Origin: a virus
Taxonomy: Duplodnaviria; Caudoviricetes
Strand: one strand, 5' to 3'
Virus record (IMG/VR): IMGVR_UViG_3300021399_000103
Span: 112,420-176,419 of that record
Length of the DNA stretch: 64,000 bases
Each line of letters opens with the position of its first letter. The first letter of the stretch is position 1. Positions 6,983 to 41,285 of this stretch are shown here, in pieces. The translations under genes were made by a program, and so were the position numbers. The notes under the pieces are model-generated. The model was not told the origin of the DNA, ran no database searches, and saw only the letters and a program-made list of their open reading frames with translations.

Positions 6983-7248
6983 TATAAATTTCCTCCAAAC
7001 CCTTTAACAAAACATCCTATAATTTCTAAAAATTCATCAATATCATCTAAGTAAGCATTATTTTGATTATAGTCAGATGTTTTTAGAAAATCATAATATG
7101 AAATTATATTGACATGATATCCATAAGCATGTGCTTTTACTAACATTGCTTCTGGATTTTTACATACTAATGTTGCGTTTTCGTCCTGGCAAAGAGCCAT
7201 TAGTTGTTTTGTTTTACCTGAACCAGGTTCTCCAATAATCTTTTTCAT
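6982..7248 (-). CDS. Small P-loop protein
   Basis: GEPGSGKT and YLDD. Confidence 0.55.
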   Translation of the reverse strand: MKKIIGEPGSGKTKQLMALCQDENATLVCKNPEAMLVKAHAYGYHVNIISYYDFLKTSDYNQNNAYLDDIDEFLEIIGCFVKGFGGNL

Positions 7249-8216
7249 TAATTCTTATTCCCCTGTGTACTATTATAACCCCAATCAGTGCTTTGATAAA
7301 AATCAATTCAATACTTCTCACGTTCATTAAGTTGAGATCTCTCGCATTTTTCAATAATTTCATACATAAATGATTCTGGCCCAATAGACTTCATTTCTGT
7401 ATAAAATCTATTATTTGAAGAAGAAATACCAAGACCTGCTTTAATATGATCGCGTAATCTATTTCGTAAATCAACACTTTGACCTATATAACACTGATTG
7501 GTTTTTAAGTTTGTAATTTTATATATTCCACAATGATTTTGTCCAGTAGGAGTTAATCTACCTAATAAATCCATTGTTGGTTTTTTATAATAAAGTTCCC
7601 ATATTATTTTATTGATAGGTTCTGGATCTTTATTTAATTTTGTAGCGACTTCTTTTAATAATTGTATATCTTCTATATCTTGATCTGAAATTTTTAATTT
7701 ATAATAATCTTTTTCAGATTCTTTAAGCATATTTCTTTTATCTAAATCAATTGCGGCTCTTACTTTTTCTTTTAATGTTTTTAATTCTTCATTTACAGTA
7801 TTTAATTCTGCTTGTTTTGCAGCAATACTTTCTGTAAAAAGCTTGGCATTTTCTTCCATTATAGAAAGATATTCTTGTTTATGCTTTTCTTCTGCTAATT
7901 GATATCTATATCCAGCTATCTCCGCAGACTGAGACATTCGTTCTTGCATTAAATCATATGATTTTTTATAGATTTCGTCTGCGGCCGCAGATGCCTGGGC
8001 GCTTATAGTTTCGATGTCTGCGTTAAGAGACGCCTTTCTTCGTTCTAATGCGCTAGTTTCTGTCTCAGCAGAAGCGATTTCCGCAGTTAATTTAGTTAAA
8101 TTATTCTGTAATTCTTTATTCTTTTGGAGCACTTCTTCGTCTAATTTATGCTTTGGATATAAATATATTATTATACCAATCAATGCTCCAATAATTATCG
8201 CATAAATTCAAATCAT
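7248..8216 (-). CDS. Membrane-anchored coiled-coil GIY-YIG nuclease-domain protein; 2 in-frame TGA read as Trp
   Basis: AAGGAG then ATG 8216; TGA at codon 3 (8208-8210, MI*IYAIII) and at 7308-7310 in EREKY*IDFYQSTDWGYN; TAA 7248-7250 overlaps next ATG. Confidence 0.8.
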
Positions 8217-10817: not shown

Positions 10818-10868
10818 TTTTTCTATTCCTTTCTTACAACCAATTATATTATATCATAATTATTTTAT

Positions 10869-12011
10869 TTAATCAAATCATTCTATTTTTGAACCATTAA
10901 TTTGTGTTGATTTTCTTTTTTTCGCTTGATGAACAGCTTGTCTTGAAACCCCTAAATATCTACCAGCTTCTGAAAAAGAATCAAACGGTATTTCATCTAT
11001 AATACAGATAAATGGTACTTCTATTTCTTCTAATGGTTCATCTGTATAATACAAAAAGTATTTACTTTTATAACGAGTTTTTTCTCTTAAAGCCTTTTGG
11101 ATTCCAGTGGTTTTGAATCCTTCTAATTGGATATCTTTTACTGTTTTATAAGTAGATTCCAATTCGCCGCCTGCGTTATATACAGCAATAAAACCTTTTG
11201 GATTTCCTATATACTCACCCCTTCGCTGAAGCGTTCTCAATGTAAATAACCGCTCATTTGGAGTGTAATAATACATAGGTGGTTTTTTATGTTCTATAGA
11301 ATAGTTATTAAATACGTCATCATTTTGTTTATAAATTTTTATTTTTGTACATATTGGATATTCATTATTTGGTTTTGGATATTCTAAAATATCAGAAGCA
11401 GGTGTTAAAGTTTTATCTAAACGTAATATATAAATAAATTGTTTAGTTCATGTTTTTCTAACATCTGAATATAAACTGCATATGCCTTCTGTAAATGGAA
11501 TTGATTCAGGGCAATTATGCTTATATAAATACCATAAAGTTGTTAAGTGACGTTCTTGCCCATCCAATAGCCAAAATCCTTCAGAAATAAAATATCCTAA
11601 ATATTCTCAATTTGTTGCTTGATAAATATATCCATAATTACCTTCTTTGCGGCCGGAGTAAGAAACTAGTAACCGCACATTTGGGCGGTATTTTTTTATT
11701 CATTTAATACCAAGAGAAATAGCTTGTGATTCTGAATTTTTCCCTTCTGAATCAGCCATACAAAATCTATTTAATTCAAGGTATTCTGATTTTTCTATTG
11801 GTTCTTTAACATATCTATCAAGTTTAATTTTTTCTTGAAAAGAACAACCTCATTGGAGTACTCCTACTAAAAGATTATCTTCTTTTCGGAATACTCCAAG
11901 ATTAAGAATTGCTTTTTTAAATCCTACCCCAGAATAATGTCAAGCAGATGTAAATTGATATGCTTTTGACGAGTTTATCTGGTCTATAAAATATCTTTTA
12001 TTTTCAATCAT
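10869..12011 (-). CDS. Mom-family (GNAT-like) DNA adenine modification enzyme with C-terminal NUMOD1/HTH-like domain; 6 in-frame TGA read as Trp
   Basis: ATG 12011 is in frame with ORF 10878-11276; motifs A*HYS, LELNRF, ESQAIS, LLVSYS, GYIYQATN*EYLG; TGA at 11940, 11850, 11700, 11607, 11448, 10878. Confidence 0.8.
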
Positions 12012-12013
12012 AA

Positions 12014-14335
12014 TTATACCTTTGATACTGATTGTATCTTATCTTTTAATGTGATATTACCTGCGGCGGTGCGTCCTAAAAGCGGAATATCTTTCGCTGA
12101 AATACAGATTGATTTAGAACTACCAACTACCAATACCTGGTCTTCATCGCTTAATAAAGCGGCTGCCGCAACTTCATCATTAGATTTATAACAAATAATA
12201 CCTTTACCACCACGTTTCTGTAAGACAAGATCATTTGGTGAAATTTTCTTACTGAAACCTGATGTTGAAAATATGCCAAGTGTATCATTACTATCTCTAA
12301 CGACCAATGTAGCAATTACTTCATCATCATCATTGAGATTTATACCTTTTACGCCAGAAGTAGTTCTTGAAGTTGCTGAAATCTCTGTTGAATTGAACTT
12401 AATACACATACCTTTCTTAGTAATAAGAATTATTGGTTCATCTTTAATTAAAGATACGCTGGCTAAGTTATCACCTTCTCTTAATGTGATTGCGGCGATA
12501 CCTGTTTTCTTTTTTGTCTTTGTGTATTCTTCTAATGAAGTTTTCTTTACTAACCCATTTTTTGTTGTAAACAAGACATATTTTGCGTCAGTATCTCTAT
12601 AAATTGAATAGATTACTGTTGGATTTTCGTTTGGTTGCATTTGAATTAGATTTTTAACAGAAATGCCTTTTGTTGTATTTGTTCCCCCAGGAATTGAATC
12701 TACAATTAAACGATACATGTTACCTTTATCTGAAAATACCATAAGAGAATCAACTGTATTTGTACGAATCACCGCATTTACAATATCATCAGTTGTTTTA
12801 ACTCCCTTGCCACCTCTGCGTTGTGTGCGGAATGAAGTTGCTGGAACTCGTTTAATCAAACCAGAATCAGTCATAATAACAACAACCTTCTCTGGTTCAA
12901 CAAATTGAATTTCTTTATCCTCTTTTTTAATTTCAATTTGTGTTAATTCAGTTCTACGAGCATCTCCATATTTTTTAACAAGTGAAGCTAATACAATTTT
13001 AACTGTTTTATATTGTGCTTCTGTATTATTTAACCAATTTGTAATTTCTTCAATATTTGAAATTAACTGTTTTTCTTCATCCTGTATTTCAACTTTTTCC
13101 AAGTTGGCTAAGCTACTTAATCTCATTGCGAGAATTGCTTTTGCTTGTTCCTCTGAAAAGTTATATTTTTTGATTAACTCTTCTTTAGCACTTGCCGCAG
13201 AAGCTGATTTTCTAATTAATGCAACAATATTGTCAATATCTTCAAGAGCTTTTAATAAACCTTCAACAATATGTAGTCTTGCTTTAGCTTTATTTAAATC
13301 AAATTCTTTTTCTCTTTTCAAACAATTTAAAGCATTGTTTACATAAATTTCACAGCAATCTTTAAGATTTAACTCTGTTGGAGTTTTACCTACAAGCGCA
13401 ACTTGATTATATGAGAAACTTGATTGAAGGTTTGTTTTAGCGAATAGCTGATTGGCTATATAATCAGAATTTCTATCACACTCAACTACAATTCTAACAC
13501 CTTTTTTATTAGTTTCATCTCTTACATCAGTAATTCCTTCGATTTCTTCAGCAACTTCACCAATTTCCGCAATTAAAGATTCTACGTTTGTTCCATAAGG
13601 AATTTCATAAAATATAAGATTATTTTTTTCTTTCTTATACTTCGCCCTAATTTTAACTGAACCATGACCTGTTTTCATAATGGCTGGAATATCGTTTTTA
13701 TTGATGATAATTCCACCTGTTGGAAAGTCCGGGCCAGGTAATGTTGGCTCTTTACCATCAATATAATCGTTAATTGCTTGCGCAACTTCAATTAAATTAT
13801 GCGGCGCCCAAGAGCAAGCTAAAGCTACACCAATTCCACTATTTGGATTACAAAGAAGATTTGGAAAATAAGATGGAAGAACTACTGGTTCTTTATCTAA
13901 TTCATCATATGTAGGGACAAAATCAACATTATTCTTCTTTAATCCTTGTAACAATCCATCTTCTGAAATTTTTGCAAGTCTTGCTTCTGTATAACGTGCG
14001 GCCGCAGGGCCATCTCCGACGATATTACCATTACTTCCATGCCAGTCAATAAGAGGATAACGCATAATCCAATCCTGAGAAAGTCGAGCCATTGCGCCAT
14101 AAATTGAACTGTCACCATGCGGGTGTAATTTACCCATTACATCGCCTACAATACGAGCAGCTTTAACGTGCGGCTTTGAATACGTGCGCCCCTCCATAAG
14201 ACAAGAATATAAAATACGTTTTGCTACTGGTTTTAACCCATCTACGGCACTGGGGATGGCACGATCGGAATTAACGGCATACGCATATTCAATAAAATTA
14301 GTATGTAATTCATTATAAATATCGTTATTTTGCAT
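12014..14335 (-). CDS. gyrA: DNA gyrase subunit A
   Basis: DGLKPV, HPHGDSS, AAARYTEARL, GyrA-box QRRGGKG, pinwheel repeats. Confidence 0.93.
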   Translation of the reverse strand: MQNNDIYNELHTNFIEYAYAVNSDRAIPSAVDGLKPVAKRILYSCLMEGRTYSKPHVKAARIVGDVMGKLHPHGDSSIYGAMARLSQDWIMRYPLIDWHGSNGNIVGDGPAAARYTEARLAKISEDGLLQGLKKNNVDFVPTYDELDKEPVVLPSYFPNLLCNPNSGIGVALACSWAPHNLIEVAQAINDYIDGKEPTLPGPDFPTGGIIINKNDIPAIMKTGHGSVKIRAKYKKEKNNLIFYEIPYGTNVESLIAEIGEVAEEIEGITDVRDETNKKGVRIVVECDRNSDYIANQLFAKTNLQSSFSYNQVALVGKTPTELNLKDCCEIYVNNALNCLKREKEFDLNKAKARLHIVEGLLKALEDIDNIVALIRKSASAASAKEELIKKYNFSEEQAKAILAMRLSSLANLEKVEIQDEEKQLISNIEEITNWLNNTEAQYKTVKIVLASLVKKYGDARRTELTQIEIKKEDKEIQFVEPEKVVVIMTDSGLIKRVPATSFRTQRRGGKGVKTTDDIVNAVIRTNTVDSLMVFSDKGNMYRLIVDSIPGGTNTTKGISVKNLIQMQPNENPTVIYSIYRDTDAKYVLFTTKNGLVKKTSLEEYTKTKKKTGIAAITLREGDNLASVSLIKDEPIILITKKGMCIKFNSTEISATSRTTSGVKGINLNDDDEVIATLVVRDSNDTLGIFSTSGFSKKISPNDLVLQKRGGKGIICYKSNDEVAAAALLSDEDQVLVVGSSKSICISAKDIPLLGRTAAGNITLKDKIQSVSKV

Positions 14336-14573
14336 TAATTAACTCCTCTCCATTAATTATTAATAATTTAATTTGATTAGAATAAAATTCTAAATAGGTA
14401 TTGGGTTTATGATATTTTTCTAATAGTGAGATTCCTTTTTGAATATTGTTAATTCCAATATTGATATTACAAAAATCACAATGAATATGCCAAGGCGTTC
14501 TACCCCATTCGTCTAAACAAATATAACATTCATTTCCACAATTTGGACAGACTATTATTTTTTTATTTTGCAT
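14325..14573 (-). CDS. Small Zn-ribbon hypothetical protein
   Basis: CPNC...CDFC; overlap-coupled to gyrA. Confidence 0.5.
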   Translation of the reverse strand: MQNKKIIVCPNCGNECYICLDEWGRTPWHIHCDFCNINIGINNIQKGISLLEKYHKPNTYLEFYSNQIKLLIINGEELINAK

Positions 14574-14793
14574 TAACTACCTCTAGTTTATCCCAGGTTG
14601 TGACATAAACTCTATTGTTCCATAATACTCTAACATAATATCCATAAAAATTGTAAAATTCATTTACATATTCTACAATTTCATGAGCGGGAATATTTGG
14701 ATATTTTAATGCTGCTTGAGTCATAAAATCTTCGTCATATATTTCTCTCAATGTTCTTAATTTTACATTATTCATGCCATACTTCCTCATCAT
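14563..14793 (-). CDS. Hypothetical protein
   Basis: Overlap-coupled ORF between gyrB and gyrA. Confidence 0.5.
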   Translation of the reverse strand: MMRKYGMNNVKLRTLREIYDEDFMTQAALKYPNIPAHEIVEYVNEFYNFYGYYVRVLWNNRVYVTTWDKLEVVNAK

Positions 14794-15067
14794 TATATAT
14801 TGAATCTTTAAATCTATAATTTTTCCAATGATATAATTTCATTAAAGCTATATATCTGCCAAATATATTTCTATTTGAATAATAATTTTTTAAATTATCC
14901 CAACAGAATTTTATATAAGGATAATCACCCAGTTTTAATAATGGAATAAAAGTATCTGGATTATTTTCATCAATTACCTGTTTTACAATTTTCTTTGGTA
15001 AATAAAAATCTCCATCTCTATCTTTGTACCAAGTTTCATTATTCGGCGTTATATAATCCCGCTTCAT
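14768..15067 (-). CDS. Hypothetical protein
   Basis: Overlap-coupled ORF after gyrB. Confidence 0.45.
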   Translation of the reverse strand: MKRDYITPNNETWYKDRDGDFYLPKKIVKQVIDENNPDTFIPLLKLGDYPYIKFCWDNLKNYYSNRNIFGRYIALMKLYHWKNYRFKDSIYNDEEVWHE

Positions 15068-17151: not shown

Positions 17152-17206
17152 ATATTATTATTATATCATATTTAATTAAAAAAGTCAAGATTTTTTCTTT
17201 CTTGAC

Positions 17207-18158: not shown

Positions 18159-18755
18159 TTATGACAAAAATTTTTCTATTTGTCAATTTTTTAGAACTTC
18201 TTTTCCAGTTTTTGATTTTGGATGATGAATTCCAAAAATAATAGCTCTTATTAAAAGTATGCTAAATCCATGTTTTTCTAATCAATAATTAGAATCTGGA
18301 AAATTAGATATTTCTGAATAATCAAATATAACTGTTTCATCTCAATTAAAATCTTTACATAAATCATCACATAAAGCTGCTAATTCAGCAAGGCAGTCTG
18401 CTAAATAATCTCTATCATTTAATTTATCTTCGCAAATACAAACATGGATATAGTTATCATTTCAAGTTTTTATATTCAATGGAAAAGTTTGTACAGTTAT
18501 TACATTATTATTTTTATCTTTACCTATTCAATAGTGGAAATTATATAATGTATGAATATGATTTCAATCATTATGTTTATGATTCTCGCCTAATTGAGCA
18601 ATAATATCAATATAGTTTTTATTATCTTTACTTGGCTGTACATATTGTCGTAAATAGGGATTATTTCGACCAGAAGAATGAATCACAATGCCCACTGGTT
18701 TTAATTCCCTATGATAAGCTCATTGAGTGCTGTTCGTCATCATGCAGTTTAGCAT
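18159..18755 (-). CDS. N-acetylmuramoyl-L-alanine amidase (Amidase_2)-like protein; all 7 Trp encoded by TGA; absent from ORF track
   Basis: MLNCMMTNSTQ*...GIVIHSSGRNNPYLRQYVQP...ND*NH...HY*IGK...VQTFP..KT*...ICED...NY*LEKHG; no TAA/TAG for 198 codons. Confidence 0.78.
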
Positions 18756-19173
18756 ATTCTTCCCTCATTTTTCTAATTTTTTTATGATGTTCGTCTTTCA
18801 TATTGATATATTCATACAAATCTAATTTTAGAACTGCTAATTGATGTTTAGCAATTTCTAAATCATTTTTAATCATTTTAATTTGTCGATGTAGCATTAT
18901 ATTTTCATAACTTTTTGGATTAAATTGTTTACTATGTTTCATTGAATAATATAATTGATTTAAGGCAGATAGCTTTATTTTTAAGTCATCTCTATATGTT
19001 TTAGCTGCGGCAATGCGCGCTCGCATTTCTGCGATAGTAGATCCCATAATCATACTTTCAAAATCTTTATCTTCTTCTGCGCACCATGCTTCACCAATAA
19101 AGACTCGCCCCATATCATCTTCAGCAGTACATTTCGCATATCCATCTTTGTAGTAAAAAGTGGGTTCTTTCAT
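18709..19173 (-). CDS. Hypothetical coiled-coil protein
   Basis: ORF with promoter and RBS. Confidence 0.55.
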   Translation of the reverse strand: MKEPTFYYKDGYAKCTAEDDMGRVFIGEAWCAEEDKDFESMIMGSTIAEMRARIAAAKTYRDDLKIKLSALNQLYYSMKHSKQFNPKSYENIMLHRQIKMIKNDLEIAKHQLAVLKLDLYEYINMKDEHHKKIRKMREEYAKLHDDEQHSMSLS

Positions 19174-29053: not shown

Positions 29054-29157
29054 AAGTCGCTTTTGTTTTGGAGTGGAATTGAACCACCAATAGACAGTTT
29101 GGAATACTGTTGCCTTAACCTTTTGGCTACCATCAGATTTTTTGCTGTAAGCGACTT
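29054..29157 (-). ncRNA. CAGCAA-helix element C: D, anticodon (UCC) and T arms inside the helix, without a full acceptor stem
   Basis: AAGTCGCTT...AAGCGACTT; D GCCAAAAGGTTAAGGC; ACAGT-ATTCCAA-ACTGT; GTGG-TTCAATT-CCAC. Confidence 0.78.
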
Positions 29158-31564: not shown

Positions 31565-31644
31565 CACCCAGGCAAGGAGTCGAACCCTTTGACGATAGAT
31601 TTGGAGTCTATTGGAGGCCCGGCCTCCTTTAAGTCTACCCAGAT
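31565..31644 (-). tRNA. tRNA-Trp(CCA) with atypical D region
   Basis: ATAGA-CTCCAAA-TCTAT; T-loop TTCGACT; D region is a long linker plus GGAGGC-CGG-GCCTCC. Confidence 0.8.
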
Positions 31645-40133: not shown

Positions 40134-40885
40134 TAGGCTGAGAGAATTGACCTTTTATACCTGCGTCTTATGCGGTTGGCCGCACGTTCTCACACTCAAC
40201 TTTTCAGCGAGTAACAGGCATGGACTCTGATCTTGCGAAGACCAGTAGAATCTTACATAGTTCATTATAGCGTTCCTTTTATTGCCCAACCTCTTGGAAG
40301 AGTTCAATACGTCCCCGCATTTATTGACGACAATTACTTGTACTTACTCACTCTATAACTTGCGGCTTAGTGGTGTCTCCATATTTCAGGAGGATAAGTC
40401 CATTTTTCTGAAACTATGTCCAGCACACTTTTGCTTTGTATACTTAATCTGTAAAATTGATTTTCCACTGTCAATTTATTATTCAAAAGTGTTGTTCCGA
40501 TTTACTGCGCGATGAGGTGCTGGTTTGGGGTCCGTGCCTTTTGAGCATAGCCCGCCCATCACCGTGCTGCTTTCATGCCACTTACTTGCTTCAATGTCGG
40601 CGCATGGCGTTTCGTCTAACACGCCGGCGCATTGATTATCCCAGCACTAACCTTTGGCGATGTTCGTACCAGGTAACATATCATATTATCATTATTTTCA
40701 TAACTTATTCCCATCCCAATCTTTCTCGAAGGCATAGGACTGCCGCATACATTCCCTCGTCTGCACGTTGAGAGAAGCGGACACAATATTATATGGCTTT
40801 CTGTGGAGTCAGTTTTCTAACCGCAGACTACGTTACTTCCTGCTTTAGCCCATCGCTGGGTTATCCTAAGGTGCCGAAGCCGCAC
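40134..40885 (-). ncRNA. Large structured ncRNA, GOLLD-like
   Basis: ~750 nt of raised GC with no ORF, between a promoter and tRNA-Gly; segments TGCTCAAAAGGCACGGA, AAAGCAAAAGTG and 3' TCTCAGCC recall GOLLD (from memory). Confidence 0.6.
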
Positions 40886-41212: not shown

Positions 41213-41285
41213 TTCCGGGTGCGGGAGTTGAACCCGCCTTTTCGGGATATGAGCCCGACCTGGGACCGATCCAGTGTAACCCGGG
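41213..41285 (-). tRNA. Initiator tRNA-fMet(CAU)
   Basis: C1xA72 mismatch; GGG/CCC anticodon stem. Confidence 0.85.

Follow-up and report, generated by a model that had tools for sequence, protein, structure and literature searches.

In phage Mu, Mom transfers glycine from Gly-tRNA to the N6 of adenine in double-stranded DNA, and the residues H58, Y59, R111, S124, D149, R151, Y159, W48 and W181 are important for this (Silva et al. 2026, PMC13219725). The Mu gene is lethal when overexpressed and is confined to late infection (Karambelkar et al. 2020, PMC7261163). Jumbo phages carry Mom fused to DNases of the restriction-endonuclease fold (Iyer et al. 2021, PMC7824862). Gut phages with reassigned stop codons were described by Borges et al. 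(bioRxiv 10.1101/2021.08.26.457843), together with a suppressor tRNA and relatives using codes 4, 15 and 11. The preferentially recoded genes listed there for the Agate clade are an intron endonuclease, a tail protein and a membrane protein only, and Mom has no occurrence in the main text of the preprint.

Mom enzymes and the TGA=Trp recoding pattern of gut phages are already known. What is new here is a mom gene that is recoded under two codes inside a stop-free operon, and a Mom subfamily in which an active-site Asp is replaced by Gly. No paper on Mom in recoded phages was found in a literature search over mostly open papers, in which Borges et al. was covered by the main text of the preprint.

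A mom-family gene read with TGA as tryptophan

The stretch analysed, called the window, comprises 64,000 nucleotides of a phage record of 176,419 bp (33% GC, 94% complete). Between gyrA and ligA, its minus strand carries a gene of 380 codons, running from an ATG at 12011 to a TAA at 10871-10869. Two nucleotides separate the gyrA stop from the mom ATG, and 51 nt separate the end of mom from ligA.

10869 to 12011, minus strand: mom-family gene, 380 aa with TGA read as Trp (protein P0001), pN/pS 0.04
12014 to 14335, minus strand: gyrA/parC-type gene, 0 TGA and 4 TGG codons
8862 to 10817, minus strand: NAD-dependent ligase gene ligA, 0 TGA and 10 TGG codons
11940 to 11942, minus strand: TGA codon 24, the first in-frame stop, preceding His25-Tyr26 (Mu H58-Y59); Tyr column
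11850 to 11852, minus strand: TGA codon 54; Trp column
11700 to 11702, minus strand: TGA codon 104; invariant Trp
11607 to 11609, minus strand: TGA codon 135; invariant Trp of YQATNW
11448 to 11450, minus strand: TGA codon 188; mostly Trp column
10878 to 10880, minus strand: TGA codon 378; Trp column, stop codon of the table-11 tail ORF

Besides the six TGA codons the frame holds two TGG codons (147 and 160), and under table 4 it shows neither a TAA or TAG before its end nor a frameshift. The plus-strand reading of 10869-12011 meets many stops and gives no gene. The first-pass annotation had proposed a 380-codon gene between gyrA and ligA of which the ORF track shows the tail only. Both statements hold, with the strand now assigned as minus; table 11 lists a single 132-aa ORF (10878-11276) within the gene, so that an annotation under this table misses the Mom enzyme domain altogether. 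The gene is 'hidden', as it was then called, only in the sense that a table-11 ORF caller overlooks it in a phage that is recoded genome-wide.

The mom family comprises 331 near-length homologs, and an alignment of 121 homologs was examined. Five of the six TGA codons fall at columns that are Trp in nearly all of these 121, and the column of codon 24 contains 114 Tyr, 4 Trp and 3 Phe. The aligned columns, Trp (38) or Tyr (3), rule out a reading of TGA as Sec or Gly. Two near relatives keep all six TGAs and have a seventh at codon 147. Comparison with these two gave 36-40 silent and 5-7 replacement changes (pN/pS 0.04); with the TGAs retained at so low a ratio, mom is intact and under purifying selection.

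The genome as a whole shows the same code. Coding cover is 0.85 with code 4, against 0.66 with code 11 and 0.69 with code 15, which was rejected. The GC skew changes sign near 15 and near 96 kb. The portal and virion genes lie in the plus-strand arm (about 15.7-96 kb), which is rich in TGA, whereas the minus-strand replication arm is nearly free of it; TGA at Trp columns is concentrated in structural and lysis genes and absent from the replication core.

The late arm ends with a tRNA gene of anticodon UCA, located 15.4 kb ahead of the window (G000:96747-97015; L142:8748-9016, plus strand). Default ARAGORN misses this gene, which is detected once introns are allowed. It is split after U34 by a 196-nt insert that weakly matches group I introns (E 1e-4, below the Rfam cut-off), and excision yields a perfect cloverleaf with A1-U72 and G73. 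These are Trp identity elements in Bacillus. The gene is, by its sequence, the phage's TGA suppressor, with predicted splicing and charging. The suppressor tRNAs of relatives G001 and G005 (UCA) and G002 (CUA) are 95 nt long; they have a long variable region, and no intron was called in them. The TGA=Trp recoding postulated earlier holds.

Inside the window no suppressor tRNA was found. The ARAGORN label 'SeC' reflects the UCA anticodon only, and neither a shortened tRNA-Trp(CCA) nor a degenerate tRNA at 29064-29136 has support as a suppressor. The former (31565-31641, minus strand) has good anticodon and T arms and an atypical D-arm and is seen only at a lowered ARAGORN threshold (Rfam 22 bits). 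The latter (minus strand), missed by ARAGORN, has a degenerate acceptor stem and the loop AUUCCAA; a further tRNA-like gene that escapes ARAGORN, at 41213-41285 (minus strand), has the anticodon CAU. A phage tmRNA (34855-35206, minus strand) and a match to GOLLD RNA (40135-40567, minus strand; 84 bits, below the gathering value of 150, E 3e-20) lie inside a cluster of 28 or more tRNAs.

The Mom domain and the C-terminal tail

11373 to 11993, minus strand: Mom/GNAT domain, residues 7-213, with an HTH-like helical insertion at about 156-180, by Pfam, PHROG, PDB and hhalign
11046 to 11192, minus strand: first NUMOD1/HTH-like module, residues about 274-322, by model secondary structure and by NUMOD1 and HTH matches in homolog P0121
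10878 to 11006, minus strand: second NUMOD1/HTH-like module, residues about 336-378, by the model, by NUMOD1 (E 1.3e-5) in homolog P0078 and by HTH_23/MarR in homologs P0121 and P0070

Membership of P0001 in the Mom family, suspected from the outset, was supported by four methods. The Pfam family Mom (PF25680) matches it at E 1.8e-39 (135.9 bits, cut-off 27.1) over model positions 2-202 of 202 and also matches all 121 homologs, and PHROG 1384 matches at 7e-38. The sole PDB sequence match is Mu Mom (8bv8, E 2e-17). A structural model built from the 121 homologs (pLDDT 86.5) returned 8bv8 as the top Foldseek hit (E 3e-13, TM 0.75 by target), followed by a GNAT at 3e-5. With hhalign (99.2%) the P0001 profile reaches the C-terminal YPK of Mu Mom, and the model helices 156-166 and 173-180 align with its HTH-like insertion (Mu about 175-209).

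The residues H25, Y26, R82, S95 and Y130, equivalent to Mu H58, Y59, R111, S124 and Y159, are each present in 121/121 homologs. At the position of Mu D149 all 121 have Gly (Gly120), whereas 48 of 49 Mom motifs from distant homologs retain Asp; the near homologs all have SY[AS]GRK in place of S[YF][AS]Dxx, with Arg121 in 120. In the sequence alignment Mu R151 corresponds to Lys122, next to Arg121, while W48 corresponds to Ser15 and W181 to Glu153. Because Asp149 is Gly throughout, Mu-type chemistry cannot be assumed: P0001 is, on sequence grounds, a member of the Mom family in a subfamily of its own, and this subfamily is a candidate for a new tRNA-dependent DNA chemistry. A sister group of shorter Mom matches (L010-L014, L135) has S[FY]SDGKEGN, with Asp where the P0001 subfamily has Gly-Arg, and is possibly intermediate.

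P0001 might not be an adenine glycyltransferase of the Mu type at all. It might use another aminoacyl donor or another base, or be mainly a DNA- or tRNA-binding protein. The replaced motif points this way, as do the dimer residue W48, not kept in the sequence alignment, and the extra tail of 165 aa. In Mu, D149A greatly reduces activity and R151A abolishes it, and the substrate of Mom cannot be predicted from structure (PMC13219725). Against this stand the five invariant active-site residues and the alignment over the full length of Mu Mom, insertion included. R151, moreover, varies widely among distant Mom homologs as well, and Arg121/Lys122 and Glu123 nearby could substitute for the missing groups. 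We regard a non-Mu chemistry as possible rather than probable; it is compatible with stop gating of mom. Modification of DNA by P0001 appears moderately likely.

The Mu target SASNY occurs as often as expected (o/e 1.00), which is uninformative as to 6-NcmdA, and avoidance of SASNY and of palindromes does not differ between mom-plus and mom-minus genomes. A dedicated tRNA-Gly linked to Mom was also considered and rejected, the two tRNA-Gly genes among the 28 tRNAs lying 26 kb away and not being specific.

In the model, the tail of P0001 forms two modules, each consisting of a beta-hairpin, a helix-turn-helix and a strand. The NUMOD1/HTH tail described in the first-pass annotation is thus retained for the model and for the homologs and not as a significant match in P0001 itself, where the Pfam search gave Sigma70_r4 at E 0.16 only and no NUMOD1 (PF07453). 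NUMOD1 is found at E ≤ 0.05 in 21 of the 121 homologs, with a best score of 25.7 bits against a cut-off of 22.8, and HTH families match both module places in several of them. Among P0001 and its homologs Pfam found HTH and NUMOD1 families in the tail and no nuclease family. A single-sequence fold of the tail was unusable (pLDDT 43). The modules may bind DNA.

Recoding of mom among stop-free neighbours

The 13 core replication genes contain 0 TGA and 84 TGG codons, where about 78% TGA would be expected from the A-ending codon bias (p = 1e-56). With 6 TGA and 2 TGG codons, mom departs from the replication arm (p = 8e-4). It can be stated firmly that stops have been purged from the operon neighbours of mom and not from mom itself, so that its product is not required ahead of the switch.

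Stops are not confined to mom in this arm. An Amidase_2 gene (window 18159-18815, minus strand) has 9 TGA and 0 TGG codons and is recoded in close relatives too. A GIY-YIG protein with an N-terminal membrane helix and a coiled coil (window 7248-8216, minus strand; 2 TGA, 2 TGG) is TGA- or TAG-recoded in many relatives. At the end of the arm lie a RuvC-like resolvase (L142:10144-10668, minus strand; 4 TGA, 1 TGG) and a membrane-anchored protein of no known family (L142:9508-10089, minus strand; 4 TGA, 0 TGG). In the TGA phages L121/L154 (G007) and L133, RNase H is recoded (4/0 and 3/1), in G007 together with some other replication genes, so that the stop-free core differs between lineages.

In the late arm, the portal and nearby head-region genes (L141:4785-9543 and 13858-14916) use TGA in 2 of 17 Trp codons though they are late; 'late' and 'recoded' are therefore not the same class. 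The efficiency of suppression may limit highly expressed genes such as these. The late arm opens with a sigma-factor-like gene (PHROG 5767; L141:340-1287). It has three in-frame TGAs here and in G007, two in G005 and none in G001, and could couple late transcription with the code switch.

The relatives' mom usually adjoins gyrA/gyrB or ligA, and the pattern recurs there under two codes. In the TGA-coded relatives (7 loci), 36 of 53 Trp codons in mom are TGA against 1 of 155 in the core; in the TAG-coded ones (18 loci), TAG makes up 115 of 298 Gln codons in mom against 12 of 970, near-copies inflating these totals, which pool those distinct copies that have 500 or more codons of core neighbours. 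The TAGs stand at invariant Gln columns (e.g. 53, 96, 131, 191). Of the 41 recoded mom copies, 39 have their first stop before codon about 95. The complete standard-code relatives G003 and G004 have a stop-free mom, and the close recoded relatives G005 and G006 have none. On a tree built from mom alone and drawn with midpoint rooting, the TGA label changes 6 times (at least 4 on starred, well-supported branches) and the TAG label 9 times (at least 5); these may be changes of code or movements of the gene.

The TGAs had been proposed to delay expression of mom. Such a delay is to be expected provided that the published code-switch model is correct, and it gains comparative support from the recoding under two codes and from a 5' skew of rare stops. 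As a special device, however, the six TGAs do not stand out. Their share in mom is 0.75 and in late genes 0.65 (p = 0.72), and the share of A-ending codons is 0.93. Over five genomes the stop shares of mom and late genes are 0.75/0.65, 0.86/0.57, 0.14/0.15, 0.11/0.27 and 0.05/0.06. As the mom share equals that of late genes and does not exceed the A-ending share, drift suffices for the number of stops.

Their position is a different matter. In mom copies with one to three stops (9 loci) the mean relative rank of the stops is 0.25, against 0.50 expected (p = 0.0004), in a test that was chosen after the data had been seen and is small, with loci that are not fully independent and lone stops in unverified loci that may be nonsense mutations. 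Few-stop control genes gave 0.47 (p = 0.10), and CAG codons in mom have no 5' skew. Five few-stop loci with an independent sign of recoding gave 0.20 (p = 0.002); G001, whose sole TGA is codon 378, is a counter-example. Selection for gating by in-frame stops is suggested, short of being demonstrated, and whether the mom stops were partly selected as a gate we consider evenly balanced.

The stops may instead be a passive by-product: in a gene that is dispensable and unneeded before the switch, TGG would turn into TGA by drift as fast as mutation supplies it, the delay would be real and unselected, and mom would be no different from other genes that tolerate stops. The tracking of late genes by mom in each of the five genomes fits this account, as does the TGA share of the tail genes, 0.83 against a mutational expectation of 0.84. 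Stop-free mom in standard-code relatives and close kin without mom are likewise in keeping with it. It does not explain the 5' skew, which is missing from control genes and CAG, nor the change in this lineage of a Tyr column to TGA immediately before the catalytic His, nor the excess of TAG (106) over both CAA (89) and especially CAG (12) in the mom of TAG phages. We give it real, if minority, weight.

More speculative, and in our judgement rather improbable as a whole, is a combination in which a distinct Mom subfamily (Asp to Gly-Arg, tandem HTH tail) carries out a modification that is possibly unlike that of Mu, and in which 5'-proximal reassigned stops, TGA or TAG by lineage, were repeatedly selected to keep a toxic, tRNA-consuming enzyme off until the switch, which here may depend on splicing of the suppressor tRNA.

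A host that itself reads TGA as Trp (Mollicutes-type code 4), with nothing gated, would suit the Mycoplasma code and the 33% GC, but is very improbable in view of the 0 of 84 core replication Trp codons, the phage's own UCA tRNA and the sister phages whose code at this locus is TAG=Gln or standard. That mom is a dead gene with nonsense mutations can be set aside almost entirely: it is dispensable, and TGG-to-TGA nonsense changes would likewise fall at Trp codons, but TAA, TAG and frameshifts are absent, pN/pS is 0.04, the TGAs are common to relatives with a TGA/TGG swap at codon 147, and TGA is used genome-wide, coding cover rising from 0.66 to 0.85 with code 4.

Proposed expression and comparison with known systems

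17160 to 17188, minus strand: host sigma-A-type promoter-like site before gyrB, 11/12 with TG; candidate start of a gyrB-gyrA-mom transcript
10848 to 10876, minus strand: ligA promoter-like site with extended -10, 10/12; present also in relatives without mom

The promoter scan, which is weak evidence since its 78 sites against 66 +/- 9 by chance are not above chance regionally, revealed no evident promoter of mom's own. No terminator-like site was seen on the minus strand between the gyrB promoter-like site and mom. With no mom promoter and a good sigma-A-type site before gyrB, mom is probably co-transcribed with the gyrase genes, and the 2-nt gap makes co-transcription and coupling with gyrA likely. 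In relatives without mom, a terminator-like hairpin bearing a T run stands behind gyrA, and the ligA promoter-like site comes next. Here mom replaces the second half of the hairpin and the ligA site is retained; an early stop in mom would thus not starve ligA. Each end of the mom cassette carries a copy of an 11-bp direct repeat, ATAATTATGAT (window about 12005-12017 and 10853-10865, minus strand), which may reflect microhomology at insertion or may have arisen by chance in an AT-rich sequence.

The reading that we favour, with moderate confidence overall, is a suppressor-gated accessory Mom with late DNA modification. A TGA=Trp phage would infect a standard-code host and carry an intact accessory GNAT of the Mom family, transcribed with the gyrase genes. 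As long as the UCA suppressor tRNA is lacking, ribosomes would halt at codon 24 and, before the switch, yield a 23-aa peptide. It is very likely that full-length Mom requires the suppressor, and quite likely that mom belongs to the late class; the enzyme would then appear only after the code switch, together with the resolvase and the tail and lysis proteins. Most probably it would aminoacylate a base of the phage DNA from a charged tRNA after replication; the modification would protect this DNA from nucleases of the host, and the two HTH modules would increase the affinity for DNA.

Like Mu Mom (PF25680, PHROG 1384, 8BV8), P0001 has a GNAT fold with a helical insertion (35% identity over 151 aa), the invariant equivalents of H58/Y59/R111/S124/Y159 and a C-terminal YPK, and its expression is apparently held back until late. 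It differs in having Gly for D149 and, by sequence alignment, Lys for R151, Ser for W48 and Glu for W181, and in the 165-aa tail with two NUMOD1/HTH-like modules. In contrast to Mu, there is no com-like gene upstream, a late promoter of its own was not seen here, and mom lies in the replication operon of a 176-kb lytic-type phage, where the delay would come from in-frame stops. With the jumbo-phage fusions it shares a Mom domain joined to an additional nucleic-acid-interacting domain in a large phage; the tail families here are HTH/NUMOD1 and not nucleases.

Of the recoded clades, Agate fits best by description (size, GC skew, mixed codes), Jade or Sapphire being alternatives. As in Agate, TGA encodes Trp in structural and lysis genes while replication genes keep the standard code, and a suppressor tRNA, bidirectional GC skew, mixed-code relatives and a recoded homing-type endonuclease in the early region are present. 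Differing from the Agate description, the recoded island here is a DNA-modification gene, under both codes, and the suppressor tRNA is split by a group I-like intron. Recoding is thereby extended to anti-restriction DNA modification. The idea of stop reassignment as a gene timer has been drawn chiefly from late operons, in which codon use is confounded with genome position. The mom gene provides an internal control, being one recoded gene in a stop-free operon, found under two codes, variably present in kin and with a simple chemical read-out, so that regulation and drift can be tested against each other directly.
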